The notes below the pieces were generated by a model. That model made no database searches. It worked only from the letters and a program-made list of their open reading frames with translations, and was not told the DNA's origin. The position numbers and the translations under genes are program-made. A stretch of 64,000 nt of DNA from Promethearchaeia archaeon. Its GTDB lineage: Archaea; Asgardarchaeota; Lokiarchaeia; Sigyniarchaeales; SOKP01. Below, piece by piece: positions 22,018 to 46,707 of the stretch. The stretch lies in NCBI GenBank assembly GCA_046483985.1, contig JAWOCD010000031.1:44571-108570 (forward strand), written 5' to 3'. Position 1 is the first letter of the stretch. The number at the start of each line of letters is the position of its first letter.

Positions 22018-23760
22018 ATGGTTTATGAAAAAAAACCTTGGCTAAAATATTATGATGATTGGGTTCCCGAGACCTTAGAGTATCCTGAAATTACTATGTA
22101 TGAAGGGGTTGCTCAATCATGCCGAGAACATAAAGATAGGACAGCGTTAGAATTCTTTGGGTATGAGATGAATTATGGAACTTTGCTAAAAAAGATAGAT
22201 AAGTTTGCGCGAATATTATATGACTTAGGTTTACGGGAAGGGGAAAGAATTACAATTGCTCTGCCTACTTGCCCGCAAGGTATTATTGCTTTTTATGCAG
22301 CAAATAAACTTGGCGCGATTGCGTCCATGATCCACCCACTCTCGCCTCCCAACGAAGTTGAGTTTTATCTTAATCTCAGCGACTCAAAAATGGCTCTGAC
22401 TTTGGATATGTTCTATGAAAATTTTGAGGAGATTCTCGATAAAACTTCAGTAGAAAAAGTCATCTTGGGAAAAATCCAAGATTATTTGGGGTTTATCAAA
22501 AAAGCTCTGTTTTGGCTCGTAAAGGGAAGAAAGGTGAAGGTTCCCGACGATCCGAAAATTCATTGGTGGAGTGACCTTGTCGATAAAGAATATACAGAAT
22601 TTCCGGAATCGTCGATGGGATTTGAAGATTTAGCAGTAATACTTTATTCAGGAGGGACCACCGGTTTGCCGAAAGGGATAAAACTGTCCAATAAAAATTT
22701 TATTTGCGAAGGGTACCAAGTAACTAAATGGGGGAATCTAAATCAAAATGACTCTATGCTTATCATTTTGCCGATATTTCATGGATTTGGATTAGGAGTA
22801 TGTGTAAATGCCGGATTAATGGCAGGTGGAAAGGGGATTTTAATTCCTACTTTTACCCCCGAGAAAGTGGTTAAATTAATCCAGAAGAAACAACCCACCT
22901 TTATGGTTGGTGTCCCAACCTTATTTGAAGCGATGAATAAAGACCCGAATTTCCAGAATGATACTGATCTCAGTTGCTTGCGGGGTGCGTTTTGTGGTGC
23001 GGATACTTTACCGCGCATTGTAAAAGAGAATTTCGAAGAGATTGCAAGAAAAAGCGGAAATGAAGATTTAATTTTGCGAGAAGGGTATGGATTAACGGAA
23101 ACGGTCACGGCTGTTGCTGCTATGCCCATGAATGAATACAGAGAAGGGAGTATAGGAATTCCATTTCCAGATATGCTAATGAAAGTGGTAAAAATGGATG
23201 AAAACGAGGAATCAACAATGGAAGAGGCTCCAATAGGTGAGGAGGGTGAATTCTGTGTTTCGGGACCTGACGTCATGATGGGGTATTTGGATAATCCAGA
23301 AGAAACAGAAAATGTTCTCAAAAAGCACAAGGACGGACGAGTTTGGGTTCACACGGGAGATGTTGGCACAATGGACGAAGATGGGTTCTTTTATTTCAAA
23401 TTAAGGAAGAAACGGATGATAAAATCTTCAGGATTTAATGTGTATCCCGTACAAGTGGAGAACATATTGAACGACCATCCCGATGTGGTCAATTCTTGTG
23501 TAATTGGAGTTCCGGATAAAGATCAAGTGGAACGGGTGAAAGCCTATGTGGTCTTAGAAGATCATGAAAAAGCGTCTAAAGAAAAAGAGAAAGAACTTAT
23601 CAATTACTGCAGAGAAAAGTTGTTGAAGTGGAAATGTCCGCGAGATGTTGCATTTACCGAGGAGTTACCGAAAACGCTTGTCGGCAAGGTCGCATACAAG
23701 GTCTTGGAAGACAAGGAGAAAGAACGACTCCGCGCCGAAGGAAAATATGCAGGAGATTAA
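22018..23760 (+). CDS. fadD: Long-chain fatty acid--CoA ligase
   Basis: 'YSGGTTGLPKG', 'EGYGLTE', 'HTGDVG', 'PKTLVGK'. Confidence 0.88.
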   Translation: MVYEKKPWLKYYDDWVPETLEYPEITMYEGVAQSCREHKDRTALEFFGYEMNYGTLLKKIDKFARILYDLGLREGERITIALPTCPQGIIAFYAANKLGAIASMIHPLSPPNEVEFYLNLSDSKMALTLDMFYENFEEILDKTSVEKVILGKIQDYLGFIKKALFWLVKGRKVKVPDDPKIHWWSDLVDKEYTEFPESSMGFEDLAVILYSGGTTGLPKGIKLSNKNFICEGYQVTKWGNLNQNDSMLIILPIFHGFGLGVCVNAGLMAGGKGILIPTFTPEKVVKLIQKKQPTFMVGVPTLFEAMNKDPNFQNDTDLSCLRGAFCGADTLPRIVKENFEEIARKSGNEDLILREGYGLTETVTAVAAMPMNEYREGSIGIPFPDMLMKVVKMDENEESTMEEAPIGEEGEFCVSGPDVMMGYLDNPEETENVLKKHKDGRVWVHTGDVGTMDEDGFFYFKLRKKRMIKSSGFNVYPVQVENILNDHPDVVNSCVIGVPDKDQVERVKAYVVLEDHEKASKEKEKELINYCREKLLKWKCPRDVAFTEELPKTLVGKVAYKVLEDKEKERLRAEGKYAGD

Positions 23761-23902
23761 TTCCATTTTCGCGGTAAATATTTCCTCCCTATTTTATTAC
23801 TTTTTTACCAAATTAGAATTAAAAAATTCTAACATTTTTATATAATCTAACCCCTAATTGAATTATAATTCAAATTAAATATATAGAAGAAGAAAATTAG
23901 AA

Positions 23903-24919
23903 ATGTTTGACGAGTCCAATTGTGCGGAGTGTGAAAATATCGACTGCTTGATGAGATGTCAATGGATAGAGTTCGAGAATCTTGAGGAAGCTCGAGCGGA
24001 AATGAGAAAACTAATCAACGGAGAAAAATCCCAGGTATTAGAAGAGTGCGTCACGTGTTTTGCGTGCGATGAATATTGTCCCTATAATTCTCATCCATTT
24101 GATTTATTTGTCAACCTGCAAGAAAAATATGAGGCTCATGAAATTAACCCTGCCGTTATCGAAAACATGATTAAAAGATATCAGCCCCATGAAGAACTCA
24201 GAATAAAGGATATTGACCCCGAGAAACCAGTCCTCAATAAATGTGCCTTTGTAAAATCACATGGCAAACATATGAAAGGACAATTATTTGAAGATCTCCA
24301 ATATGTAGCGGGGAGAGATTTTTTCTGCAATTTAATGTATCACCATTTTGAACGAGATTCGGTAATTCGAGAACGGATACCAAAGATTATCGAAAATATT
24401 GAAAAACAAAATATAAAAGAGATGATATGCTTCCATGATGAATGTTATGGGTTATATGCCTCATATTGTCCGCGAAATGACATTGAGGTTCCATTTGACC
24501 CGATTCATGTATTTGAGTATATTTATAATTATCTACAAGATAATCCTGGTAAAATTACGAGTCTTAATAAGAAAATCGCATATCAGAGAAATTGTTCAAA
24601 TCGGTTCATCCCGGAAACAGATAAGTGGGTGGACAAAATATGTGAACTTATCGGAATAGAGCGGGTTGATAGGAAATACGATCGGGAAAATGCTTTATGT
24701 TGCGGTGCGCCGTTCGCTATGTTAGGGAAACGGAAAATGGTAAGACCCACTCAGAAAAAAAATATCAAGGATATGAAAGAGCACAATGCCGAATATGCAA
24801 TCTTTAATTGTCCGATGTGTTTAGATACTCTGGGATCCAAAGCGAAACGAAAAGACCTAAAACCATATCTCTTGAGCGATTTAGTACGGATGGCCATGGG
24901 AGAGGAATTAGATTACTAA
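23903..24919 (+). CDS. Fe-S / CCG-domain oxidoreductase (HdrD/GlpC-like)
   Basis: 'CVTCFACDEYCP', 'ALCCG', 'NCPMC'. Confidence 0.8.
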   Translation: MFDESNCAECENIDCLMRCQWIEFENLEEARAEMRKLINGEKSQVLEECVTCFACDEYCPYNSHPFDLFVNLQEKYEAHEINPAVIENMIKRYQPHEELRIKDIDPEKPVLNKCAFVKSHGKHMKGQLFEDLQYVAGRDFFCNLMYHHFERDSVIRERIPKIIENIEKQNIKEMICFHDECYGLYASYCPRNDIEVPFDPIHVFEYIYNYLQDNPGKITSLNKKIAYQRNCSNRFIPETDKWVDKICELIGIERVDRKYDRENALCCGAPFAMLGKRKMVRPTQKKNIKDMKEHNAEYAIFNCPMCLDTLGSKAKRKDLKPYLLSDLVRMAMGEELDY

Positions 24920-30906: not shown

Positions 30907-32352
30907 ATGTCTAAACTTAAAAATTATTTGAAAGAACTGGAAATTTGGAAACAAGCGCTATGGGGGATAATTATTATTGGAGGGCCCGTTATTACCACCC
31001 TCCTTTTGATTTGGCTCTTTTCTTTACATGGAACTTTGGGTATTTTCCTCTGGCATCCTTTATTCTTTTCCATTATCGTTATACTGGGAATTTTTGCGGT
31101 TTTGGGATTTAGTTTTGCTTTACTCAATATTTTTCTTCCTAATCGAAGAGAATCAAAACTCTTTTCTATCCTTAGAAAATGTTCATGGATCTTTTGTATC
31201 ACTTGTTTAATTACTTCCGTTTCGTTTATAGGGTATGTGGGACCGAAACTTACCCATACCGCGGGGTCAACTGCGCCTCAGATTTTAATTTGTGATGGAG
31301 AAGGGGAGAATGGGATTCCTAAAATGGCGGTCACCTTTTGGACCGAAAGGCCCACCACGAATACACTCAAATGGGGAAACGAATCCTTATCAAAAACCAT
31401 AACGGAAGAAAAAGCGACCCATCAACATGCATTTATCTTGGATAAATTAAATCCCGACACAGAATATTGGTATCAAATAAATGAAGAAGGGGAAATTTAC
31501 AATTTTACTACCGCATCGGAAGACAATGACAAACTGAGACTTGCAATTACTTCTGACGCCCATTTTGGCCGGTCGGAGAGTAGACCCGGCATTACAAGGG
31601 ATATTTTAAAGGAAGTTACAGATCCGGGCAACTCTTTTGATAGTCTCTTTTTCTTGGGTGATCTTGTAGAATACGGATTCATGGATAGTCAGTGGAAGCA
31701 ATTTCTAGACTCTGTGTCCCCCTATACTACAAGAATACCCTTCAGAACTCTATGTGGTAATCATGATACGATATTTGGTGGTGTAAAATATTACAAAGAT
31801 TATTTATATCCAGAGAAAATGCCAACAGATACAGGATCTCGGCTATATTACCGAATCGATATAAATAATGTCCACATTTTTGCTTTGAATCTTGAATGGG
31901 GGCTTGAAACCTATACCGCAGAACAAAAAGAATGGCTTGAAAGCGAAATTGCAAAAGTTGAAGAAGATGATTGGACCATTGTAATGTCTCATAGTTTTTT
32001 CTATAGCTCAGGAAGTGTTTATGGATTTAAGTCATGGGCAGATCAACCTGATATGCTTGATGCCTTTGAGGATTTATTCATCGAAAATGATGTAGACCTC
32101 GTCTTTTCTGGCCATAATCACCATGTGGAAGTTTTAGAAAAGGAGGGAATTTATTATCAAATCGTGGGGGCTGCGGGGGCCGTCCCTGATCCCAAAGCAG
32201 ATACAATATCAGACGCAAGCGAATGGTACATGAATATCGAAACGGATTCAGAATTCGGATTCTTCGAAGTTGATATAGACGGAAACAATGCCACCCTAAA
32301 TTACCGGAATAAAAACTATGATTCCCTCTATAATATTACAATAGAGGAATAA
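30907..32352 (+). CDS. Membrane-anchored purple acid phosphatase-like metallophosphoesterase (FN3 + calcineurin-like)
   Basis: 3 N-terminal TMs; 'SDAH', 'GDLV', 'GNHD', 'SGHNH'. Confidence 0.85.
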   Translation: MSKLKNYLKELEIWKQALWGIIIIGGPVITTLLLIWLFSLHGTLGIFLWHPLFFSIIVILGIFAVLGFSFALLNIFLPNRRESKLFSILRKCSWIFCITCLITSVSFIGYVGPKLTHTAGSTAPQILICDGEGENGIPKMAVTFWTERPTTNTLKWGNESLSKTITEEKATHQHAFILDKLNPDTEYWYQINEEGEIYNFTTASEDNDKLRLAITSDAHFGRSESRPGITRDILKEVTDPGNSFDSLFFLGDLVEYGFMDSQWKQFLDSVSPYTTRIPFRTLCGNHDTIFGGVKYYKDYLYPEKMPTDTGSRLYYRIDINNVHIFALNLEWGLETYTAEQKEWLESEIAKVEEDDWTIVMSHSFFYSSGSVYGFKSWADQPDMLDAFEDLFIENDVDLVFSGHNHHVEVLEKEGIYYQIVGAAGAVPDPKADTISDASEWYMNIETDSEFGFFEVDIDGNNATLNYRNKNYDSLYNITIEE

Positions 32353-32713: not shown

Positions 32714-33913
32714 ATGTCTCAATCTGAAATAAAAAGATCAGACACAAAAAAACCTACAAGTAAATCTCTCGTAAAACAGGCGATAATTAAATTACTGCTT
32801 ATTGTGTTAGTTTTAAGTCCTATACTGATGTTTTTCATTCTCTCGCCCTTGTTCTATTTATATGATCCTAATGAGCATGGTCCATGGGTTTCATGGTCTG
32901 GAAATCCGGATGAACAGGTGTATATTTCTTGGGAAACAGAGGAGAAAACCTCGGGAATTCTCAAATATGGTATCGATGAAGGCGATCTCAACCAAAGTGT
33001 GACTGAATCAGAGAAGACAAACATCCATCATGTCAATTTAACTGGCTTATCAGCGGATACTACGTATTACTATGAGGTGGAAATTGATGGGAAAGTATTT
33101 GGAAAAGGAAAATTTAGAACAGCCCCATCCAGCCAAAAGGATTTTACTTTTGGATTATATTCTGATACGCAGCAAAACTTCGGACCAGGGCATCATTTTC
33201 GAGTGGGAAACGCGTTAAAAGATAAGAAGTATGCTTTTATTGTGAATGTAGGAGATATCGTCCAAGATGGTGGGAAAAAAGAACATTATAATAATTTTTT
33301 CAAAATAGGCTCTGAATATTTGGATACTATTCCCTTTATTCCTGTAATTGGTAACCATGACCAACGAAACGTTACGCTATTTACCGAATACTTTATCAAT
33401 CAAGTCAACAAATCGCAATATCACTTTTATTACAGTTTTAATTGGAGTAATGTGCATTTCTGCTTCCCTCATTTTGCCTATGGAAGTGAATCCGAAATGA
33501 CGGATGCGCAATTAAACTGGCTAAAAAAAGACCTATCACGGTCCCAAGATAAAGCATTTCGCATTGTGATGTTTCATTGTCCCATTAAAGGAGCCTCCTT
33601 TTTCGGCCCCAATGAAGTGTTAATCGAAAAAGTACAACCAATATTGCTCGAATATAATGTTACCGCTACGGTCCATGGCCACGAACATCATTTCGAACGC
33701 GGAAATATTAAGGGTATGACATATTTTATTTCTGGCGGCGGGGGCGGAGCACTGGATGTAGGGCTTCGCCCACTACCAGAAACAGAGGTCTTAACAGAAT
33801 CTCCTAATTTCACGGAGGTTCACGTAACCGAAAATGAAATAAATTTCAAGACCATGACGCTCGAGGGTTCAGTTATTGATGACTTTACTATCCAGGCAGA
33901 GGAGGGGGTATAA
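32714..33913 (+). CDS. Purple acid phosphatase-like metallophosphoesterase (FN3 + calcineurin-like), signal anchor
   Basis: 'SDTQ', 'GDIV', 'GNHD', 'FHCP', 'HGHEHHFER'. Confidence 0.85.
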   Translation: MSQSEIKRSDTKKPTSKSLVKQAIIKLLLIVLVLSPILMFFILSPLFYLYDPNEHGPWVSWSGNPDEQVYISWETEEKTSGILKYGIDEGDLNQSVTESEKTNIHHVNLTGLSADTTYYYEVEIDGKVFGKGKFRTAPSSQKDFTFGLYSDTQQNFGPGHHFRVGNALKDKKYAFIVNVGDIVQDGGKKEHYNNFFKIGSEYLDTIPFIPVIGNHDQRNVTLFTEYFINQVNKSQYHFYYSFNWSNVHFCFPHFAYGSESEMTDAQLNWLKKDLSRSQDKAFRIVMFHCPIKGASFFGPNEVLIEKVQPILLEYNVTATVHGHEHHFERGNIKGMTYFISGGGGGALDVGLRPLPETEVLTESPNFTEVHVTENEINFKTMTLEGSVIDDFTIQAEEGV

Positions 33914-34570: not shown

Positions 34571-35198
34571 GATCCTACATTAAATCTTTCTTATTTCACA
34601 AATTAAATCTTTAAGGAAAATCAAGCTAAAAGAAGAGTGGTCAATGTGTCGCCTACTTTTTTTATGTTCACTAATTATTTTTTGGGTAATTAATGATATT
34701 AGGCTAATTTTTTACGTTAGTATTTTTTCAGCGATCCATTGACCAATATATATTATATCAAAGCCGGCGTGTTCGTGAAAATCAGAAAATCAGCAAATCT
34801 TTACTGAACTTTATGGAAATGGATTATCCATAATTAAGATTTATTAATAAATTCCTTTCAACCAATATTCTAAACTATCATCAGAGTTCCAGAATTCTTA
34901 TAATTAAAATCTGGAGTGAATTTAAAAATCATTTTCTAAAAATTCTAAAATTATTAGAATTAGAAGAAACGCATTAAAATAATCTATCTTCTCTGAACAA
35001 ATCCAAACACAATATTTACGAATATCATTAATTTGTGCAAAACTAACTAATAATATTCGTATTAATTAGAAATTCTTTTTAAGTAAACTAGGGTTAAATT
35101 TTATAAATAGTTATTTGATTAAAAACAAATTTCGCTTAATCAAACAAACAGACTATTAATTAAATCATTTTATTAAAAAAGGATAAGAAGGTATTCTT

Positions 35199-35984
35199 AT
35201 GAAAAGCGATCAAGAGTTGATCAAGAAGTTACGGTCAAACACTTTGAAATGCGTCATTTTCGATTTTGATGGGACGGTATACGATATTAAAGAACCCCTA
35301 GAAGATGCCGTAAAAGAGGTAATAGAATCTTATAACATTCAAGCCGACGAAGAGTTATTGCTGCAGGAAATCGCGGCTATTATTGAGTCAATACAAGCGC
35401 ATCCCATTCCAAAAATCATTCTTCAATCGTATGACATCTTTAATCAGGTAACAGCGCTGAGCGACATTAGATTTTTAAAAAAACTGAAAATAGCGGCAAA
35501 AATGTTCACAAAATATCAAGCAAATGCAAAAGAATCCTCAGTTTTCGCAAGTGTCGAACCAGTGGTGCAACATTTCAAAAAAGCGGCTGAAATAATTATC
35601 GTGTCTCATAACCAAACGGCACACATTGAAGATCACTTAGAAAAGGCACGGTTAACTTCGTATTTTGATAAAATTTACGGTGCAGATAAACTTGAAGCAT
35701 TAAAACCTGATCCCAGAGTTTTTGACTTTTTCCTCGAGAAAGAGGAAGGATATAGTCCGAAGGATATTGTGGTTATCGGGGATATGCCTACAGATATACA
35801 AGCTGGAAATGAAGCAGGCTTCTGGACAATCGCAGTTCAGAGCGGAATTACAAGTCGCGACATGTTAGCGAATTACGGACCGGATTTATTGCTAAATAAT
35901 CTTGGTGAACTCTTAGCAATATTAAAGAATGAAGACCAATTACCTTCAAAATCCAAAATCAATAAAGCAAAAGTAAAGATGTGA
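35199..35984 (+). CDS. HAD-superfamily phosphatase (Gph-like)
   Basis: 'IFDFDGT', 'SHN', 'KPDP', 'IGDMPTDIQAG'. Confidence 0.88.
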   Translation: MKSDQELIKKLRSNTLKCVIFDFDGTVYDIKEPLEDAVKEVIESYNIQADEELLLQEIAAIIESIQAHPIPKIILQSYDIFNQVTALSDIRFLKKLKIAAKMFTKYQANAKESSVFASVEPVVQHFKKAAEIIIVSHNQTAHIEDHLEKARLTSYFDKIYGADKLEALKPDPRVFDFFLEKEEGYSPKDIVVIGDMPTDIQAGNEAGFWTIAVQSGITSRDMLANYGPDLLLNNLGELLAILKNEDQLPSKSKINKAKVKM

Positions 35985-35994
35985 GGTTTTAATT

Positions 35995-37671
35995 ATGGTT
36001 ATTACTGAATTAGAAACTAAAGATGTTGTAAAAGAAAAAGATAGAAAAGAACAACCAGAAAGAGAAGAATTAGAACAAAAGGAGCCAGACTTTAGGAAAA
36101 CTCATACCAAATTATTGTATAAGTTATTTAAGTATAATTTATTTGATATATCGAATGATATTTTACGAAAGATTCTTGATCAATTTAATCTTTTAGATAA
36201 ATTCGGAGAATTACAATGGTGGGCGGCGTACATTTGGGTACGTGAAGCGATGAGAAGATTATGGAATTTTAATTATGATCGGGTCGATGGCAATCTTTTC
36301 CCCGAATATGGGGGTGGAATCTTAGTCTCCAACCATCAATCGCACCTAGATCCGTTTTTCGTGGCGGGGGCTACCACTCGTAGGATTCATTGGATGAGCA
36401 AGGACGAAAATTTTAAAACCCCAATTATGCGTAGCTTGTTCACCAATCTCAGCGCATTTGAAGTCAAACGGGAAGCTAAGAATAAAGAAGCATGGAACAA
36501 AGCAATAAGTATTTTGGAAAATGATAACTGGGTTGGAATCTTTCCAGAGGGGACACGTTCAAAAGATGGCTCGATAGGAGAATTCAAAACCGGTGCCGTA
36601 CGAATGGCCATCGAAACGGGACAACCGATAGTTCCCGCCGCTGTCATCGGCTCAAGAAACGCTTTACCTAAGGGAAAATTAGTTATGAAGCCCGTACAAG
36701 TGAAGGTTCGGGTTGCGGAACCCCTCTATTACGACGAATACGACATAGACACAGTCTCTTACAAGAAAGTCCGAGAATTGACTGAGGAACTCCGGGAGAT
36801 TGTAATTGGCCTCAAGAATGGAACCTATAATAAGGACAGCGATTACCATGTGGAGGACCTTTCGATTGGAGCTCCGGATACAGCCGAAGAAAGCATTAAA
36901 AAATTCAATCTCATGGACCGAATCAAGTCCTTGGGAAAGGATACATTACAATTAATAGATGATATCTGGTATTCAATTCTCCGTGGTGCCGAAGTTTTCG
37001 ATTTGAAGGAACATTTTCAAGAAGCCATTTATCACTTTTCTGGGAATGTCGTAAATGGCATGTGCGATTTAATGCTACCATACCGGACCATCGATTATGA
37101 TGAACATATTCCCGAAGAAGGAGGGGCTATAATCTGCTCCAACCATAACTCCGAATGGGATGTTATCATACTCGCCACCACCTTCCAACAGCGAGGGGAA
37201 GTCGTCTATCAGATGGCAAAGGAATCTCTTTTTAAGATACCGATAGTGAACGGATGGGTGCGAACATGTCATGCATTTCCATTACGCAGAGACGCACATG
37301 ATGAGGGTTCTTATAATTATGCGAGAGAACTCTTGGAAAATGGAAAAAGAGTTATAGTATATCCTGAAGGGACCACCAATCCCGGAAACGGACAATTCTT
37401 GGAAGGTCACACCGGTGCAATTCGATTAGCAATTGAAGCAAAAGTTCCCATCATCTTGGTTGGAATAACCGGCACAGAGGATATATTTCCAAAACATGCA
37501 AAAATGTTAAATTTCGGACAAGGATGCATCCTTAAGGCGGGAGAATTGTTTCGAGAACATGAACAGTATTTTGATAAGCCCATGCCAGATTATAAGGAAC
37601 TAAAACGAATGACGGATAACATGATGGCACGTATTGAGGATTTAACATTTTATGACGATCCAAATGCATAA
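35995..37671 (+). CDS. plsC: Tandem two-domain lysophospholipid acyltransferase (PlsC x2)
   Basis: Domain 1 'SNHQSHLDP...FEVKR...IFPEGTRS...IVPAAV'; domain 2 'SNHNSEWD...FPLRR...VYPEGTT...IILVGI'. Confidence 0.88.
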   Translation: MVITELETKDVVKEKDRKEQPEREELEQKEPDFRKTHTKLLYKLFKYNLFDISNDILRKILDQFNLLDKFGELQWWAAYIWVREAMRRLWNFNYDRVDGNLFPEYGGGILVSNHQSHLDPFFVAGATTRRIHWMSKDENFKTPIMRSLFTNLSAFEVKREAKNKEAWNKAISILENDNWVGIFPEGTRSKDGSIGEFKTGAVRMAIETGQPIVPAAVIGSRNALPKGKLVMKPVQVKVRVAEPLYYDEYDIDTVSYKKVRELTEELREIVIGLKNGTYNKDSDYHVEDLSIGAPDTAEESIKKFNLMDRIKSLGKDTLQLIDDIWYSILRGAEVFDLKEHFQEAIYHFSGNVVNGMCDLMLPYRTIDYDEHIPEEGGAIICSNHNSEWDVIILATTFQQRGEVVYQMAKESLFKIPIVNGWVRTCHAFPLRRDAHDEGSYNYARELLENGKRVIVYPEGTTNPGNGQFLEGHTGAIRLAIEAKVPIILVGITGTEDIFPKHAKMLNFGQGCILKAGELFREHEQYFDKPMPDYKELKRMTDNMMARIEDLTFYDDPNA

Positions 37672-38753
37672 TGTTCGAGGGAATCAGTATGAGTTCTGAA
37701 GAATATAAAATTAAGGTCGGCATCCCCCGAGCATTTCATTATTATCGATATTTTCCTTTTTGGAAGAAGTTATTTGATGAGTTTGGGGTAGAAATTATTT
37801 TGAGCCCCGGGACCAACAAAAAAATCGTCCAAGAGGGGGTTTCCTATGCATTGGGGGATCTTTGTTTGCCTTTGAAGGTATATTACGGACATGTGTTGAA
37901 ATTAATTGAAAAACATCCAGAATTAGATTATTTATTTGTTCCGCGTTATGTTTCGGAGGTGCCTGATTCTTATTTCTGCCCGAAGTTCCTTTCTTTACCA
38001 GATGTAATCAAAATTGTGCCTAATGTGCCTCCAATTTTGCATTTCGAGGTTAATGTGAAAAAGAAACCCATTTCTATGTCGGTAATAGATATGGCAAAAG
38101 AATTAGGGATAGGGCAGAGAAAGGCATTGGACGCATATTATAAGGCAGATGAGTATTTTAATAAATACGTATCTTTTTTGAGGAGCGGAGCGCCCGTAAA
38201 TTATGCACTACGTCTGGTAAAAAACAATAAAGCTTTTAAGCTCCCAAAGAAAAAACAAAAATCTGGTGAAATCAAACTACTTCTTTTAGGACATGAATAT
38301 AATATTTTTGATACCTATGTAAATTTAGATTTTCAAGAAAAATTGCGGGAAGAAAACGTTGAGGTAATTACTAAGGAAAATTTGCCCCAAAAAGTATTTC
38401 AAACCCCAGTAGTTGTAAACAAAAAGCTAAAAAACTATTGGAGGCACGAAGAAGAAATCATGCAAGCGATCCGATATTTTCTTACTAAAGGTCGCGACGA
38501 AATTGATGGCGTCATCTTTTTAATTAGTTTTGCATGTGGCCCCGATAGTATTATTTCCGAATTAATTATGCGGGATATGAAAGTTGTAAGACTTCCGTTT
38601 CTCCAGATTATAATGGACGAACATACTGGAGAAGCAGGGTTACTTACTCGTGTTCAATCATTTACAGATATGATAAAACGAAAAAAGAAGAAATTAAAAA
38701 TGCGAGAAAAAGAACAGCAAACTACGAGTTCTCAAAAAGCGGAGGTAATATAA
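37671..38753 (+). CDS. DUF2229 / acyl-CoA dehydratase-activase-associated Fe-S protein (PlsA/Ger reductase-type domain)
   Basis: 'KVGIPRA...FPFWKKLF...CLPLKVYYGHV...FCPKF', 'SFACGPD', 'DEHTGEAGLLTRV'. Confidence 0.8.
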   Translation: MFEGISMSSEEYKIKVGIPRAFHYYRYFPFWKKLFDEFGVEIILSPGTNKKIVQEGVSYALGDLCLPLKVYYGHVLKLIEKHPELDYLFVPRYVSEVPDSYFCPKFLSLPDVIKIVPNVPPILHFEVNVKKKPISMSVIDMAKELGIGQRKALDAYYKADEYFNKYVSFLRSGAPVNYALRLVKNNKAFKLPKKKQKSGEIKLLLLGHEYNIFDTYVNLDFQEKLREENVEVITKENLPQKVFQTPVVVNKKLKNYWRHEEEIMQAIRYFLTKGRDEIDGVIFLISFACGPDSIISELIMRDMKVVRLPFLQIIMDEHTGEAGLLTRVQSFTDMIKRKKKKLKMREKEQQTTSSQKAEVI

Positions 38754-38756
38754 CAG

Positions 38757-39953
38757 ATGTTGGTATCATTTCCAAATATGGGTTATAACTGGGTAGCTTT
38801 TAAAACATTATTCGACTGTCTAGACGTTCCTGTCGTGTTACCCGATCCGACAAATAGAAAATCAGTCAAGTTCGGTGTGCGGCATAGTCCTGAATTTGTC
38901 TGTTTTCCGTTTAAAGCGACGCTTGGAGATTTCAAAAATGCTTTAGAGAAAGGCGCAGACACTCTCGTGATGGCAATTGATTGCGGTCCTTGCCGGTTCG
39001 GTTTTTATGCGAGCGCCCAAGAACGAATTCTGCGAGATTTAGGATATGACGATTTTCGAATGGTCCCTTTAGATCAAGCTGATCTCTTAGAATTAAAGTG
39101 GGTCAATACCTTATTTAAAGTGACAGAGGATCAAGGACTATTTAAATATGCAAAGGCCGTTAAAGCAGTCATCTTTTTCCTAAAAAAATCAAAATATATA
39201 GAGGATATTCAGACTGCAGAGGGGATTTTCCGGGCATATGAAGAAAATAAAGGCGATACCACCCGAACGGTGGATAAACTGCTGGACAAATTAGATCAAA
39301 TGAATACTTTAAAAGGGCTTCGAAACTTCCGTTCGGTTATCAAGGAAGAATTTAATCAAATTGACGTAGATAAAAGTCGCAACACCTTAAAGGTGGGTAT
39401 TTCTGGTGAAATTCACATCACTTTAGAACCTTATGTTAACTTAGATATCCGTCGTAAGTTGGGTAACATGGGCTGTGAAATACATCAGTCATTAAGTCTT
39501 TACGATTGGATAGTACATAAATTTCATTTAAATTACCACCGAAAATGGTTAAAACATTTAGCAGAGCCTCATATGTCAATGGACATTGGCGGGGAAGCTG
39601 TCTGGGTATTAGGCGAATATATTGATAAAGCGAATGCAGGTTTTGACGGATTTGTCCATCAATATCCCTTTACTTGCATGCCAGAACTTACGGCTCGGAC
39701 AATTATTGAAAATAAATTAAAGCCCGAATATGATTTGCCTGTAATTTTCTTTTCATTTGATGAGCAATCAGGACAAGAAGGCTTCAGAACGCGTCTGGAA
39801 GCATTCTGCGATTTAATGCAATCAAGGCGATCTCAGAGTTTGATCGGCCCCGGAAGTGAAACAATCAAAAAAGACAAGCAAGATGAGGTTAAATTGAATA
39901 ATTATGGTAATGTATTTTATCAAGAAATTAAACAATTAATTCAAACTAAATAA
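38757..39953 (+). CDS. 2-hydroxyacyl-CoA dehydratase-like subunit (PlsR-type domain)
   Basis: 'CFPFKATLG', 'GPCRFGFY', 'GEI', 'PFTCMPE', 'DEQSGQEGFRTRLEAF'. Confidence 0.75.
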   Translation: MLVSFPNMGYNWVAFKTLFDCLDVPVVLPDPTNRKSVKFGVRHSPEFVCFPFKATLGDFKNALEKGADTLVMAIDCGPCRFGFYASAQERILRDLGYDDFRMVPLDQADLLELKWVNTLFKVTEDQGLFKYAKAVKAVIFFLKKSKYIEDIQTAEGIFRAYEENKGDTTRTVDKLLDKLDQMNTLKGLRNFRSVIKEEFNQIDVDKSRNTLKVGISGEIHITLEPYVNLDIRRKLGNMGCEIHQSLSLYDWIVHKFHLNYHRKWLKHLAEPHMSMDIGGEAVWVLGEYIDKANAGFDGFVHQYPFTCMPELTARTIIENKLKPEYDLPVIFFSFDEQSGQEGFRTRLEAFCDLMQSRRSQSLIGPGSETIKKDKQDEVKLNNYGNVFYQEIKQLIQTK

Positions 39954-39964
39954 TAAAGAAGGAA

Positions 39965-40999
39965 TTGAATATGGTTCAAGCTAGAGAAAATATTACAAGT
40001 ACTAAAAAAATAAAACAAGATGCATTTCTTGGCATCGATGTAGGAAGTGTAAGTTGTAAATTTGTATTGATAGATGAAGATGGGAATATGCTAACTAATG
40101 TGTTTCTTAGAAACCGCGGATCACCGATTGATTCAGTGAAAGTTGGGATGGCAAAAATGAAATCCCATATAGAGGAAAACGAAGAACTACAGGAATACAA
40201 GATACGATCGTGTGGAACAACAGGATCAGCCCGATATTTAACAAAAGCAGTCGTTGGCGGTGATCTTGCAAAGACCGAAATTATTGCTCATGCAGTTGCT
40301 ACACAATCAATGTATCCCGACGTTAGAACAATCCTTGAAATCGGGGGGCAAGACAGTAAAATTATCATCCTTCGTGATGGGATTATCGTTGATTTTGCAA
40401 TGAATTCAGTATGCGCCGCTGGAACAGGATCTTTTTTAGATCACCAAGCAGAACGATTAAATATTCCTATAGAGGATTTTGGAAATTATGCTATCAAATC
40501 CGATAGTCCTGTATCCATTGCGGGACGATGTACGGTATTTGCTGAATCGGATATGATCCATAAACAAAACGCAGGACACTCAAAAGAAGATATCATTGCG
40601 GGGCTTTGTGATTCCTTGGTACGCAATTACTTAAACAACGTAGGAAAAGGAAAAGAATTGGCCGAACCAGTTGTGTTCCAAGGTGGAGTTTCTTATAACG
40701 AGGGTATTATAGAAGCATTTGAACGGCATTTGGAGTGTGAAGTGACAGTTCCCAAGCATAATGTATTAATGGGAGCACTCGGGATGGCAATTTTAGTAAG
40801 GGAATATTTTTACGAACATGGAAAGGAAACAAGTTTCCGTGGATTAAACGTCGCACAAACTGAATTTCATACCTCTACATTTCATTGTGGAGATTGCCCC
40901 AACAATTGCGAAATCGTTGAAGTAAAAATGCCCAACCAGGGAGATAAGATAATAGCACGCTGGGGAAGTAGATGTGGTAAATGGAGTATAGGGTGGTAG
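39965..40999 (+). CDS. ATP-dependent CoA-substrate-specific activator (BcrAD/BadFG/HgdC ASKHA ATPase) with Cys-rich tail
   Basis: 'GIDVGSVS', 'TTGSAR', 'EIGGQDSK', 'MNSVCAAGTGSFL', 'RCTVFAESD', tail 'CGDCPNNC...GSRC'. Confidence 0.9.
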   Translation: MNMVQARENITSTKKIKQDAFLGIDVGSVSCKFVLIDEDGNMLTNVFLRNRGSPIDSVKVGMAKMKSHIEENEELQEYKIRSCGTTGSARYLTKAVVGGDLAKTEIIAHAVATQSMYPDVRTILEIGGQDSKIIILRDGIIVDFAMNSVCAAGTGSFLDHQAERLNIPIEDFGNYAIKSDSPVSIAGRCTVFAESDMIHKQNAGHSKEDIIAGLCDSLVRNYLNNVGKGKELAEPVVFQGGVSYNEGIIEAFERHLECEVTVPKHNVLMGALGMAILVREYFYEHGKETSFRGLNVAQTEFHTSTFHCGDCPNNCEIVEVKMPNQGDKIIARWGSRCGKWSIGW

Positions 41000-41057
41000 T
41001 GGAGAAATGAGTGGAAATTTAATCTATTATTTATAAAATTAAAATAATTAAAATGGA

Positions 41058-41273
41058 GTGAAAAGCAAAGTGGAAAATGTAGAAAAGATTTTCAAAAATA
41101 TAAAAAAACTTGGGAAAGAAATTTTTGACACAGCAAACCATCGCACAAAGCTGCGAACAATATTTGATGCGTATACAGAAGAAGCTATCCCAACTTTTGT
41201 GAAAGAGGAAGATTTGAAAGAATATTATGAGGAACAAATGGAAAAAGTAAATGAGTTTATTTATAAATTATAA
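41058..41273 (+). CDS. Small hypothetical protein in the lipid operon
   Basis: 71 aa co-directional ORF filling the gap; amphipathic. Confidence 0.5.
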   Translation: MKSKVENVEKIFKNIKKLGKEIFDTANHRTKLRTIFDAYTEEAIPTFVKEEDLKEYYEEQMEKVNEFIYKL

Positions 41274-41320
41274 GGATTTTAAAAAGTTTTAAAACAAAGT
41301 AAAAATAAAAAAAAGAGTGA

Positions 41321-42037
41321 ATGAAAATGGTTGAAACAGCTTATAATACAACGGAAGAAAGCGCGGGTTTCGATAAAGATGAACTCATAAATGATCTCCT
41401 ATATGGAGCAACAAAGGGACTCGGAAAAATGGTGTCTAAGTATGTAAATAATTTGAAGATTGAAGGAAAAGGAAATGTGCCTATGCGTGGGAAGGCAATT
41501 TTAACAACAATTTCAAAAAACGCCCTTCGAGACATGGTCCTTATCAGTCAAGTATCAGGTAGAAAAATCCATTTTATGCTTGATCCAAAATTGATGAAGC
41601 AAAAAGTGGTTGGAGACTTCTTAAAACGATTGGGGATGTTTCGAAGTACGATCAGTAAAGACGACAAAGAACCAATAAATAAAGTGTTTAAGATCTTAAA
41701 TAAGAAGAAAGAACTGGTCGCCATGACGCCCGAGGAGAAATTAGGCAGAGAAACCATAATTAAAGCAATGGCCAGCATTATCAAGTTTGCAATCGCCGGA
41801 GATGCTCCAATAGTCCCGGTCGCGATTTACACGAGAACTAACAAAATTCTCAATATGATTCCAACAAGTTCATTGGTAGTACGGGTTGGAACACCGCTAA
41901 AATTAGACAGAAAATTAACCCGTGATAAATATCGCCCAAAACGATATAAAGCAGCGGAAGAGATAGTTAATATTATCGAACATCTGAAAAATGAGACCCC
42001 GATAGACGAATCAGACAAGAATTCATCATCAGAATAA
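41321..42037 (+). CDS. Degenerate PlsC-fold protein (lacks the catalytic His)
   Basis: 'IEGKGNVP..GKAIL', block I reads 'TISKNALRD' instead of NHxSxxD, 'MTPEEK' instead of FPEG, 'APIVPVAI', 'VRVGTPL'. Confidence 0.7.
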   Translation: MKMVETAYNTTEESAGFDKDELINDLLYGATKGLGKMVSKYVNNLKIEGKGNVPMRGKAILTTISKNALRDMVLISQVSGRKIHFMLDPKLMKQKVVGDFLKRLGMFRSTISKDDKEPINKVFKILNKKKELVAMTPEEKLGRETIIKAMASIIKFAIAGDAPIVPVAIYTRTNKILNMIPTSSLVVRVGTPLKLDRKLTRDKYRPKRYKAAEEIVNIIEHLKNETPIDESDKNSSSE

Positions 42038-42055
42038 TAAATGAGCTGAAAGACA

Positions 42056-42325
42056 GTGGAAAAATTAAAAGAGAAAAACCCCGAAGAATCCTCAGATAAG
42101 AATTGCCATCCCAAAGAAAATGAAGATCTTAATATGAAGAAGGTGAAGAAAATGTTCGGCGACTTAGATATTGATAAGGAACTGAGTGGATTATTCTATA
42201 ATTCAATAAAACTTTTCTTTGAACTTGGAAGGGAACTCACCGAAAATCTAGACGAAGAGCTGTATGACAAAGCACTTAAAATGTATCAGCAGAAAAAGAA
42301 TAAAAAAGAAAAAAGTAACATTTAA
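42056..42325 (+). CDS. Small charged hypothetical protein
   Basis: 89 aa co-directional ORF at the operon end. Confidence 0.5.
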   Translation: MEKLKEKNPEESSDKNCHPKENEDLNMKKVKKMFGDLDIDKELSGLFYNSIKLFFELGRELTENLDEELYDKALKMYQQKKNKKEKSNI

Positions 42326-42514
42326 GATTTTTTCTATTTTTCATTTTAAAAAATCTTATTTTGCTTGTAATTTAAACTGTAGTTATATTGAGATTCAAAG
42401 ATATGATCCATATTTAAAAATTAACAAAAAGGCAATTCTCTCCCATAGAAAGCGGTCGAACAGACATGTGATAAAGGAAGGAAAGAAAAAGCATGAGAAT
42501 CTCGTTCTACTTAG

Positions 42515-42691
42515 TTAGTCCTTCTTCTGTTCCTCACGTTTAATATCAAGGAAACGCTCGACTCGGCGGCGAACAGCATCTATAATGAATTCCGAGTGGG
42601 ATCTATAACCAAGTTCCTTTTGCTCCTCAATAATTTTAAGTATTGATTCAACCAAATCTTCGGGGATTCTTACTGTGCGATAATTAGGCAT
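42515..42691 (-). CDS. Ribbon-helix-helix (CopG/Arc/MetJ) regulator (not in ORF track)
   Basis: MPNYRTVRIPEDLVESILKIIEEQKELGYRSHSEFIIDAVRRRVERFLDIKREEQKKD*, 58 aa. Confidence 0.8.
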   Translation of the reverse strand: MPNYRTVRIPEDLVESILKIIEEQKELGYRSHSEFIIDAVRRRVERFLDIKREEQKKD

Positions 42692-43114: not shown

Positions 43115-44041
43115 TCAAACACGCTTCTCATAATTAATGAGTACCACTGCAACTAGTACTATAACCCCCCCAAGTATGTTCCATATTACAATGACTTCTT
43201 CTCTTTGGAGCAGTGTTGAGATAAGGAGAGTAATAAATGGTTCAAAATATAAAAATGAAGCAACTTTAGAGGACATTAAGTTTTTTTGAGAATATTGCCA
43301 AATATAATACCCGACCACATAGCATCCTACACCCAAATACAGACCACTTAAAAGGACAACCGGATGAAAAAAAAATTGCAAAAATATCTCCAATTCATTG
43401 GAAAATACAACTAAAAAAAACAACTCTAATGTCCCCAAATATCCAATATATTCAAGCATTCGGTGATGGGAATTAGTTTTTGGAATTTTCTTGGTCAAGG
43501 TTGAATAGATACTCCAAGAAACAGGGGTTAAAAGAGCAAAAAAAAATCCTAAGAAACTGGGAGAGGAGGGAAAAAGAGTTCCTAGATCCCCTCCCGTCAC
43601 CAACAAAAAGCCTCCAATGCTTGCAATTATAAAACCGATCGCCTTTAATAGAGTGAGAGGTTCTTTGAAAAGGAAAAGTGCAAGAAAAGAGATCAATACG
43701 GGTGACAAAAGACAGACAAATAGAGCCGGAAGGGAAGGACCGATCAGTTCAATAGCATTATATTGTGTATAGAAAAAAAAAGAAACCCCAGTAAGGCTTG
43801 CAAAGAATAGATAGACCCATGAACTTAAGGAATATGAAGTCTTTTTCTGAGAAGAAGAATCTGAAGTAAATATCTTTCTGTAAATCCGTATTAATATGTA
43901 AGTGCCAGAAGCGATAACAAAACGATATAGAGCAACAGAAAGAGGAGGGATATATTCTACGGAGATATCAACGACGACGAAAGAAAAACTCCATATAATA
44001 ATCATTAAGGTAAGTAACAGATAGTTTTCATACTTCTTCAT
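43115..44041 (-). CDS. DMT/EamA family transporter
   Basis: Two EamA repeats, ~10 TMs, 'IWSFSF', 'LFKEPL', 'FLYFEP'. Confidence 0.88.
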   Translation of the reverse strand: MKKYENYLLLTLMIIIWSFSFVVVDISVEYIPPLSVALYRFVIASGTYILIRIYRKIFTSDSSSQKKTSYSLSSWVYLFFASLTGVSFFFYTQYNAIELIGPSLPALFVCLLSPVLISFLALFLFKEPLTLLKAIGFIIASIGGFLLVTGGDLGTLFPSSPSFLGFFFALLTPVSWSIYSTLTKKIPKTNSHHRMLEYIGYLGTLELFFLVVFSNELEIFLQFFFHPVVLLSGLYLGVGCYVVGYYIWQYSQKNLMSSKVASFLYFEPFITLLISTLLQREEVIVIWNILGGVIVLVAVVLINYEKRV

Positions 44042-45462: not shown

Positions 45463-46707
45463 TTAGATAAAAAGCCTACTCCCTATAAAACTTGCCAAAT
45501 CCATGACTTTTATCTTTTCTTTCAATTTTTTTTGCTCGTTTGCTAAGGCGGGCTCACTTAAATAACAAATAAAATGCGATAGACATTTTATACAAGGAAC
45601 CAGTAAATATTCAGCACCCGTTTCAGCAGCCTCATTTATTCGCATTTTTCTTAATTGTCTCGTAAATTCTGTACACCCCGAGAATGCAGAAACGCCGCAA
45701 CATTTTGCATCTTCTTTTATATGTTCCATTTCGAGAAGTTTTACGCCAGGAATTTTTTTTATGATCTCTCGTGGGGTATCAAATAATTTAGGTCCAAAAC
45801 GACCAATTCGACAGGAATCATGATATGTCACTGTAACCGGGTTTTCCTTTGGAAATCGAACCTGTTCAAGAATATTATGTTTTAGAAAGTATTCTGTATA
45901 ATGGAGAACCTCAAAATCACAATCTTCAACAACTTTTGGATAATCTATCTTCCATGTTCTGTAGTCCTCTGCATCAACCACAATTAAAGTTTTTACTCCG
46001 GCTTGTTTGAACAATTCTACATTATAATGTGCTAATTTTTTAAAGGTTTCCTCATCACCGCGCCCCCATAACGAATCATGGCCCGATAATTTCTCACGTA
46101 ACACAACAGGAGAAATACCTACTTCATTCAATAAACTAATAACAGTTATAGGGGATTTTAAATAGTCCACATCAAATTCGAAAGGAATATCTTCCATGAA
46201 AGGTGCCGGTCCTACAAATAACCCAATTTCGCCAGCTTCTTGTATTTGAAGATCTTTCTCCTCAAGGAAACTTAAGTGATTAGGGGGATTGGGGTTCTCC
46301 GCCATAAGATTTGCAATTAAAGGGAATATCCCATCGTGAGTTTCACATTGAGAGATTTTTTCTAATTCTTCTTCAATTCCTTCTTTAACGGCGAGTTTTC
46401 TTAATTCCAAGATTAGTTCTGGAATCTGAACCCCTTCTTCCCCTTTTGTCATGGGACAATACACTGTGCATTGACCGCAGGTTAAACATTGCCATATGTT
46501 ATTTTTTTCCAAGGCTTCTTCGACTGATTTATATACAATATCATCGATTAATTGTCGAGGAGAAAAAATATCTAAATGAGCCAAGAGGCATACATTGACG
46601 CAGCGGTTACAATTATAGCAATAGTTTGCACGTGCTCTCACTTTCTGAATGATATCTTGCGATTCGAACAATTTCTTATTCTTTTTTTTAGTTGCCGTCA
46701 TATTCAA
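45463..46707 (-). CDS. HdrD-like Fe-S/CCG protein (first CCG domain Cys-less)
   Basis: 'CYNCNRCVNVC', 'CLTCGQCTVYCP', 'YHDSCRIGR', 'KCCG', 'PCIKC'. Confidence 0.82.
   Translation of the reverse strand: MNMTATKKKNKKLFESQDIIQKVRARANYCYNCNRCVNVCLLAHLDIFSPRQLIDDIVYKSVEEALEKNNIWQCLTCGQCTVYCPMTKGEEGVQIPELILELRKLAVKEGIEEELEKISQCETHDGIFPLIANLMAENPNPPNHLSFLEEKDLQIQEAGEIGLFVGPAPFMEDIPFEFDVDYLKSPITVISLLNEVGISPVVLREKLSGHDSLWGRGDEETFKKLAHYNVELFKQAGVKTLIVVDAEDYRTWKIDYPKVVEDCDFEVLHYTEYFLKHNILEQVRFPKENPVTVTYHDSCRIGRFGPKLFDTPREIIKKIPGVKLLEMEHIKEDAKCCGVSAFSGCTEFTRQLRKMRINEAAETGAEYLLVPCIKCLSHFICYLSEPALANEQKKLKEKIKVMDLASFIGSRLFI

Follow-up and report, generated by a model that had tools for sequence, protein, structure and literature searches.

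We analyzed a 64,000-nucleotide stretch of DNA from a Promethearchaeia archaeon (Asgardarchaeota; Lokiarchaeia; assembly GCA_046483985.1, contig JAWOCD010000031.1, positions 44,571 to 108,570 of the forward strand), hereafter called the window, and focused on a gene cluster at 35199-42325 in which genes for PlsC-type acyltransferases adjoin the genes for a DUF2229 iron-sulfur enzyme. The cluster consists of eight co-directional genes on the + strand, and the intergenic gaps range from -1 to 58 nt in the open reading frame (ORF) listing. Domains were assigned by profile searches against Pfam and NCBIfam. The ORF listing and these searches agree with the initial annotation of this DNA, which had described eight co-directional genes with these domains at these coordinates. 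The cluster and the features at its borders are as follows (aa, amino acids).

34571..35198, no strand: AT-rich spacer of 630 bp, read from the sequence; presumably the promoter region and the left border of the cluster
35199..35984, + strand: HAD-IA phosphatase, 261 aa; PF13419 (HAD_2), 83.6 bits; motifs DFDGT and GDMPTD
35995..37671, + strand: PlsC2, tandem two-domain PlsC/LPAAT-type acyltransferase, 558 aa; two PF01553 domains, 200 bits; TIGR00530, 174 bits
37671..38753, + strand: DufA, DUF2229 iron-sulfur subunit (alpha-like), 360 aa; PF09989, 159.6 bits, and a sub-threshold HGD-D tail
38757..39953, + strand: DufB, second iron-sulfur subunit (beta-like), DufA paralog, 398 aa; weak N-terminal PF09989, 39.3 bits
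39965..40999, + strand: Act, ATP-dependent activase (BcrAD/HgdC type) with a four-Cys C-terminal tail, 344 aa; PF01869, 158 bits; TIGR00241, 185.7 bits
41058..41273, + strand: s71, small helical protein, 71 aa; conserved after Act in type-1 loci
41321..42037, + strand: PlsCx, paralog with the PlsC fold but lacking the catalytic His and PEG motifs, 238 aa; PF01553, 31 bits (weak)
42056..42325, + strand: s89, possible small ORF, 89 aa; no family match in Pfam or NCBIfam
43115..44041, - strand: EamA-family transporter, convergent neighbour; PF00892, 99 bits

Predicted acylation unit and DUF2229 enzyme

The first unit of the cluster comprises the HAD phosphatase, PlsC2, and PlsCx. Both domains of PlsC2 have the PF01553 fold together with the HX4D and (F/Y)PEGT motifs of the PlsC/AGPAT family, which read NHQSHLD/FPEGT in one domain and NHNSEWD/YPEGT in the other. 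In an alignment of 51 orthologs, HX4D and PEGT were invariant in both domains, and domain 1 matched the structure of T. maritima PlsC (5KYM, E 1.2e-16). PlsC2 thus has the fold, HX4D, and PEGT in common with PlsC and other AGPAT-family enzymes, but differs from bacterial PlsC in that it fuses two catalytic domains, which are encoded by separate genes in a sister family. A further difference from the bacterial system is that the cluster adds a third, motif-less paralog, PlsCx, in which TIS[KD]NxxRD (here TISKNALRD) and MTPE (here MTPEE) replace HX4D and FPEG in 12 of 12 aligned orthologs. Because 68 columns of this 12-ortholog alignment stay invariant, PlsCx is regarded as a conserved non-canonical paralog and not as a decaying gene. 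The ortholog alignments thus confirm the two intact sites and the degenerate third PlsC of the initial annotation. Apart from these three PF01553 domains, all encoded in this operon, the 97%-complete genome has none. The HAD protein contains the DxDxT nucleophile motif (DFDGT) and the GDxxxD motif (GDMPTD) of the HAD-IA family, and all of its matches to NCBIfam equivalogs were below their cut-offs.

The second unit comprises DufA, DufB, Act, and s71, and the cluster is the sole DUF2229 locus of the genome. DufA, whose true start is possibly Met7 (37689), carries the PF09989 domain that places it in the DUF2229 superfamily, at 159.6 bits against a cut-off of 29.4. A match to PF06050 (HGD-D) covers only 60 aa of its tail, at 19.8 bits against a cut-off of 28.4, and DufB has no such match. 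By hhalign comparison (97.9%, E 3.5e-13), DufB and DufA are paralogs, so the “dehydratase-like subunit” of the initial annotation stands as a gene but not as a classical HGD-D protein. The invariant cysteines are C65, C103, and C289 in DufA and C49, C79, and C307 in DufB. Such a three-cysteine pattern is that of the cluster sites in 2-hydroxyacyl-CoA dehydratases, and both DufA and DufB show the pattern of HgdAB/HadBC at what are predicted to be cluster sites. Solved structures match only the last 60 residues of DufA (HadC, 3O3M_B, E 1.9e-5; DCCP, 7YYL/6ENO), and a PDB sequence search with DufB found nothing relevant. Act contains the conserved motifs NSVCAAGTG and AGRCTVFAESD, which are the two Cys motifs of HgdC-type activators, and ends in the tail CxxCxNxCE...RCGKW; the earlier identification of an activator with a CxxCxNxC-type tail was borne out by PF01869 and TIGR00241.

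More distant small ORFs with a pattern like that of s71 are located after the activase gene in sister families and in one further triad of DufA, DufB, and activase genes. At one locus (L089), PlsCx directly follows PlsC2 after a gap of 60 bp, and s71 is missing there along with the triad. Judged by these comparisons, s71 is a conserved gene. In a three-chain complex model, s71 docked on DufB with a score of 0.85, against 0.00 for the best of three controls. Of 80 solved complexes, 58 reached the mark for this score, as did 2 of 110 mismatched pairs; these counts hold only roughly because own alignments were used. The contacts between s71 and DufB agreed at ≥ 89% among the model runs, and the predicted local distance difference test (pLDDT) value of the partner was ≥ 69. 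The model supports the binding of s71 to DufB as a small fourth subunit of the reductase module. As for s89, it overlaps another ORF (42264-42518) and has weak relatives in 5 loci (35-50% identity), and its status as a gene is uncertain.

Linkage of the two units and their distribution

To describe the linkage of the two units, we counted adjacent genes in 64 related loci with a type-1 DufA. In 52 of 57 loci PlsC2 immediately preceded DufA, and among the loci with room for it, the HAD gene was upstream of PlsC2 on the same strand in 38 of 46. Act was next to DufB in 15 of 18 loci, and PlsCx followed Act within 700 bp in 9 of 13. DufB was adjacent to DufA in 6 of 39 loci, split from it in 14 (inserted DNA, 187 bp to 6 kb), and outside the locus in 19. 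The compact form of the window is therefore a minority state, because the DufA|DufB junction is often broken. This junction (38753/38757 in the window) is a recurrent site of insertion and rearrangement (L019, L022, L023, L046, L056, and others), and the inserts are mutually unrelated: they include a PAS histidine kinase, a metallo-beta-lactamase, an ABC transporter/ATPase, E1 dehydrogenase subunits, a Ras-like GTPase, and CbiQ. After the break, each half still joins an acyltransferase gene to a reductase gene, as PlsC2-DufA and as Act-s71-PlsCx. PlsC genes also lie beside DufA-DufB-Act in sister families, in which DufA is 41-47% identical to that of the window; one of these families has two separate PlsC genes, and in two others the PlsC2-like, PlsCx-like, and HAD-like genes are reordered. 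The adjacency of PlsC genes and the module thus occurs in four Lokiarchaeial families with differing gene orders, and the linkage to plsC across Lokiarchaeia, which the initial annotation had proposed to check by synteny, is kept despite reordering. The strongest evidence that the PlsC genes and the reductase are functionally coupled is that their adjacency recurs in spite of these rearrangements.

The distribution of the module was determined in an even, taxonomy-based sample of 301 genomes of the phylum. A DufA-type gene was present in 55 of 68 genomes of the window's own family, in 6 of 7 genomes of one sister family, in two single genomes of the same class, and in one low-quality genome elsewhere; the remaining Asgard families in the sample yielded none. 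The labels of NCBI entries (Thor-, Odin-, Hermod-, and Hodarchaeota) had suggested conservation across all Asgard archaea, which this sample led us to reject. Five loci (L018, L024, L028, L043, and L048) are titled Hermod-, Odin-, Borr-, Hod-, or Thorarchaeota, and their DufA is 65-70% identical to that of the window; the labels or the binning of these metagenome-assembled genomes look unreliable. PF01553 was also found as a single-domain protein in four other Asgard families that have no triad, and a strict phyletic coupling of PlsC and the triad was rejected for this reason. The cluster, which is probably of bacterial origin, was found in no families other than those of the Lokiarchaeia type, and its relevance to eukaryogenesis is limited; the initial annotation overstated this point, given that the cluster was found in one Asgard class and not in the other families sampled.

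Within the window's family, the reductase shows a natural presence/absence polymorphism. Three 99-100% complete genomes of one genus (L087, L088, and L089; G088:C6, G179:C14, and G254:C159) keep HAD-PlsC2-PlsCx and the EamA gene, and DufA, DufB, Act, and s71 are absent from them. The reductase is therefore regarded as an optional module, since related genomes keep HAD-PlsC2-PlsCx alone, and the acyltransferases do not need the reductase, since complete related genomes without a DUF2229 system keep them. The possibility that a PlsA-like protein with two activase domains replaces the missing triad in the reductase-less genomes was rejected, because only short canonical activases were found there.

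With regard to the surroundings of the cluster, relatives of the EamA transporter lie downstream of it in related loci (e.g., L003, L025, L036, L048, and L054) and in three reductase-less loci. The two genes upstream of the AT-rich spacer have no relatives among 68 related loci. Two genes for purple-acid-phosphatase-like metallophosphoesterases (30907-32352 and 32714-33913) are located upstream and are not kept beside the cluster in related loci. Further upstream, at 22018-24919, the AMP-binding gene of the acyl-CoA-ligase type that had been annotated earlier is present (22018-23760) and is followed by a gene for a CCG-domain protein. Downstream of the cluster, an HdrD-like protein with CCG and ferredoxin domains is encoded on the minus strand (45463-46707). 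These genes may be connected with acyl activation or with the supply of electrons.

Relation to PlsA/PlsR, Ger, and 2-hydroxyacyl-CoA dehydratases

The only characterized DUF2229 enzymes turn glycerolipid esters into ethers (PMC13159169, PMC9702350). PlsA/PlsR (Clostridium perfringens Q8XL48/Q8XL47; single-gene Enterococcus faecalis Q835P9) combines a DUF2229 domain with an activase of the BcrAD/BadFG type, both of which are also present here, and with a second component that resembles reductases and dehydratases, for which DufB is the probable equivalent, and Ger (Thermotoga maritima Tmari_0479; Desulfatibacillum alkenivorans SHJ90043) belongs to the same superfamily as the module. For the comparison, we used Lokiarchaeal proteins that have two activase domains and DUF2229 (BBD) and their partner proteins (R) as stand-ins for PlsA/PlsR; these pairs have the two-gene layout of PlsA/PlsR and are not validated enzymes. 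DufA was collinear with the D region of BBD (hhalign E 3.7e-23). Act corresponds to the second activase domain of BBD, including the four-Cys tail, which the first domain does not have and which is also common to the activases of bacterial triads; the combination of an activase and a Cys-rich tail that characterizes the PlsA/PlsR-Ger superfamily is thus found here, as judged against PlsA-like homologs. The match of DufB to the PlsR-like R profile was weak but collinear over the full length (E 1.1e-4, probability 56%), and DufB is probably the PlsR counterpart. Part for part, the DufA/DufB/Act module thus appears to correspond to the PlsA-like BBD+R pairs. The published architecture of Ger is BBD followed by H/D segments (PMC13159169), and its D-H, D-H order matches that of DufA followed by DufB.

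There are also clear differences. Compared with PlsA/PlsR, for which the PlsA-like stand-ins were used, the components here are three separate proteins and a small fourth subunit, they belong to another clade, and they are encoded in an operon with acyltransferases. Ger is one polypeptide with two activase domains (its fused bacterial relatives have ~1,420-1,450 aa), whereas the cluster has a single activase domain and not the Ger-type order of two activase domains followed by D; no BBD protein was found in the genome of the window. The BBD layout is reported to be conserved in all alkyl-ether producers (PMC13159169), and a single activase domain correlates with plasmalogen producers according to one paper (PMC13274423), which also describes further PlsA homologs, of unclear role, that lack an activation domain.

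In eight of the related loci (L066:9453-13813; L011:11043-15040; L004, L005, L012, L061, L065, and L068), genes for a BBD protein (977 aa) and R (469 aa) are located just downstream of the type-1 DufA. Proteins of Thermodesulfobacteriota and other bacteria share 60-62% identity with the Lokiarchaeal BBD proteins; many of these bacterial proteins are fully fused (~1,420-1,450 aa), and the 469-aa R partner shows a 44-49% match to the C-terminal parts of the fused bacterial proteins. These values suggest that the BBD+R pair of Lokiarchaeia was recently transferred from bacteria. In sequence, the BBD proteins fit the published Ger/PlsA architecture. Ger homologs have already been reported in Lokiarchaeota, and the search that found them required ≥ 30% query coverage and E ≤ 1e-50 (PMC13159169). 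Based on these published criteria, we infer that the reported homologs are the fused BBD proteins and not the split proteins of 344-398 aa.

The nearest relatives of the module are the stand-alone DufA-DufB-activase triads of anaerobic bacteria, which have the same gene order, the same protein sizes, and a Cys-tailed activase; some of them are followed by a small ORF, as Act here is followed by s71. One triad, which is accompanied by a 107-aa ORF on a Gram-negative bacterial contig (L084:4658-11640), comes after genes for an LPG_synthase_TM protein, a polysaccharide deacetylase, and a glycosyltransferase of family GT4, and this was the only lipid-related context among the sampled bacterial triads.

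The module was also compared, at the sequence level, with HgdAB/HgdC, HadBC/HadI, and DCCP, to which it may be likened in its ASKHA activator, ATP-driven electron injection, heterodimeric Fe-S proteins, and three-cysteine sites. It differs from these systems in the extra four-Cys tail of Act and in that the HGD-D match is confined to a sub-threshold tail; neither DufA nor DufB has a full-length HGD-D domain. The genome holds three HGD-D pairs elsewhere, one of which lies beside a canonical 263-aa activase, the second PF01869 gene. A conventional 2-hydroxyacyl-CoA dehydratase is an unlikely reading of the module because the genome has these separate canonical sets, and we rejected it on the basis of these sets and the sub-threshold tail. 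A second DUF2229 set occurs in related genomes (L066:14147-16660, L031:9808-12228, L034:2353-4794, and L058:3387-5825): it begins with a protein of 806-837 aa consisting of FAD_binding_4, DUF2229, and an HGD-D tail, continues with an activase of its own and a DufB-like protein of 444 aa, and is absent from the genome of the window.

Proposed function and its alternatives

The cluster can be described as two functional units, an acylation set and a DUF2229 enzyme, that are kept joined in Lokiarchaeia. The best reading of this arrangement, drawn by analogy with the bacterial enzymes and to which we give about an even chance, is that PlsC2 forms an acyl ester on a backbone of the glycerol phosphate type and that a four-protein Fe-S enzyme then reduces the ester to an ether. 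The two intact domains of PlsC2 could perform two successive acylations of this backbone with acyl-CoA, and the non-catalytic PlsCx and the HAD phosphatase would have supporting roles. DufA and DufB would form a heterodimeric [4Fe-4S] core with s71 docked on DufB, and Act, as an HgdC-type ATPase, would spend ATP to deliver a low-potential electron. Most likely, the activated core would then act on the carbonyl of the acyl ester, which would pass through a ketyl radical as it is reduced to a vinyl ether or an alkyl ether; bacterial PlsA/PlsR and Ger catalyze this kind of ester-to-ether conversion. The reductase would act as an optional modifier of the product of the first unit. The substrate, the product, the stereochemistry of the backbone, and the role in the membrane are those that we infer for such a route. 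A more far-reaching version, which we put forward only tentatively and consider rather doubtful, is that the cluster by itself encodes a complete pathway by which an archaeon makes ether lipids through acylation and subsequent reduction, separately from the prenyltransferase route, and that the stand-alone triads of anaerobic bacteria, which number in the hundreds, form a second class of lipid ester reductases that has gone unrecognised.

Several results weigh against the ester-to-ether reading. The identity between DufA and the D region of BBD is only ~22-28%. When 1.84 billion representatives were searched with a profile, 774 representative clusters were obtained at E ≤ 1e-30, and the best 150 representatives were stand-alone proteins of ~330 aa or DufA-DufB fusions of ~700-770 aa, with none of the BBD type (0 of 150). 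In a FastTree phylogeny rooted on BBD, the Lokiarchaeal forms fell into one clade of 27 rows (Shimodaira-Hasegawa-like support 99), which also holds a few metagenomic sequences and lies inside the stand-alone radiation; this tree was built without validated PlsA, PlsR, or Ger sequences and so has no functional anchor. By its sequence, the module belongs to a separate, mostly bacterial clade of stand-alone triads with no characterized member. The kinship to PlsA/PlsR and Ger claimed in the initial annotation therefore holds as a part-for-part match, but not as a grouping with the fused PlsA/Ger-like proteins. Furthermore, no PlsC neighbours were found beside the sampled non-Lokiarchaeal triads, which came from spore-former, Gram-negative, and actinomycete contexts, and the whole module is missing from the three same-genus genomes described above. 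In the genome of the window, PlsY was not found and a supply of glycerol 3-phosphate was not apparent. Finally, only isoprenoid hydrocarbons have been reported from the cultured Lokiarchaeon P. syntrophicum, by a method not designed for acyl or alkyl glycerolipids (PMC11316595), so these data do not decide the matter either way.

Three other explanations were considered. The DUF2229 module could act on the acyl donor, dehydrating or reducing an acyl-CoA via a ketyl radical before PlsC2 transfers the modified chain. The best-studied chemistry of the superfamily is that of CoA thioesters, the C-terminal tail of DufA matches the HadC and DCCP structures, the paralog in related genomes is fused to FAD_binding_4, which is typical of 2-hydroxyacid dehydrogenases, and at one locus a 3-hydroxyacyl-CoA dehydrogenase gene comes right after DufA; moreover, the occurrence of the acyltransferases without the module in some genomes is what would be expected of an optional change in the donor. 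We nevertheless consider this explanation unlikely, because the PF06050 match is confined to the 60-aa sub-threshold tail, the genome already has three full HGD-D pairs, including the one by a canonical activase, the cluster contains no CoA-transferase or hydroxyacid dehydrogenase, and the Cys-tailed activase is of the PlsA-like type. A second explanation also keeps the two units working together, with a product outside the membrane: the first unit would make a lipid for storage, a neutral lipid, or a small molecule bearing an acyl group, the reductase would modify this product, and the cluster would have little bearing on either membrane lipids or the lipid divide. The HAD protein could strip the phosphate to give neutral products of the diacylglycerol type, PlsC2 weakly matches lyso-ornithine-lipid acyltransferases, an EamA exporter is a conserved neighbour, and the genome encodes the archaeal isoprenoid ether route (GGGPS and a G1PDH-like gene). 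However, the best matches of PlsC2 are 1-acylglycerol-3-phosphate acyltransferases (TIGR00530 and 5KYM, with the values given above), and no ornithine-lipid or wax-synthase partner was found within the cluster, so we regard a non-membrane product as fairly improbable.

The third explanation denies the coupling itself: the reductase genes may have landed in a recombination-prone spot and be functionally unrelated to the acyltransferases. This would agree with the many unrelated inserts at the DufA|DufB junction, with the clean absence of the module from same-genus genomes, with the accumulation of other DUF2229 paralog sets at the same site, and with the lack of PlsC neighbours beside the sampled non-Lokiarchaeal triads. 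The adjacency of PlsC and the triad in four families, however, persists at 41-47% DufA identity, in varied gene orders, and with fused or unfused PlsC, and PlsC2-DufA and Act-s71-PlsCx stay joined after rearrangement. We therefore consider chance proximity the least probable of these explanations, and the formation of an acyl ester by PlsC2 followed by its reduction to an ether is retained as the best reading.

Both PlsC genes (PMC6737245, PMC6431249) and fused homologs of Ger have already been published for Asgard archaea (Villanueva 2017; Sahonero-Canavesi 2022). In full-text literature searches, we found no paper describing the split four-part module, the fourth subunit, or the operon coupling with acyltransferases, and the coupling and the split form appear to be unreported. 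The question of whether Asgard archaea make lipids other than isoprenoid ethers bears on the lipid divide and is still open; scattered homologs of PlsC and of fused Ger have been listed for Asgard genomes, but no defined pathway. Here, the sole PlsC-type acyltransferases of a genome and a reductase of the PlsA/Ger superfamily are encoded in one compact, expressible operon, and natural variants without the reductase exist in a genus of the same family. The cluster is thus a concrete and directly testable candidate for a route to fatty-acid-derived lipids in an archaeon and, if this reading is true, it would assign a first function to the large family that the stand-alone DUF2229 triads of anaerobes form.

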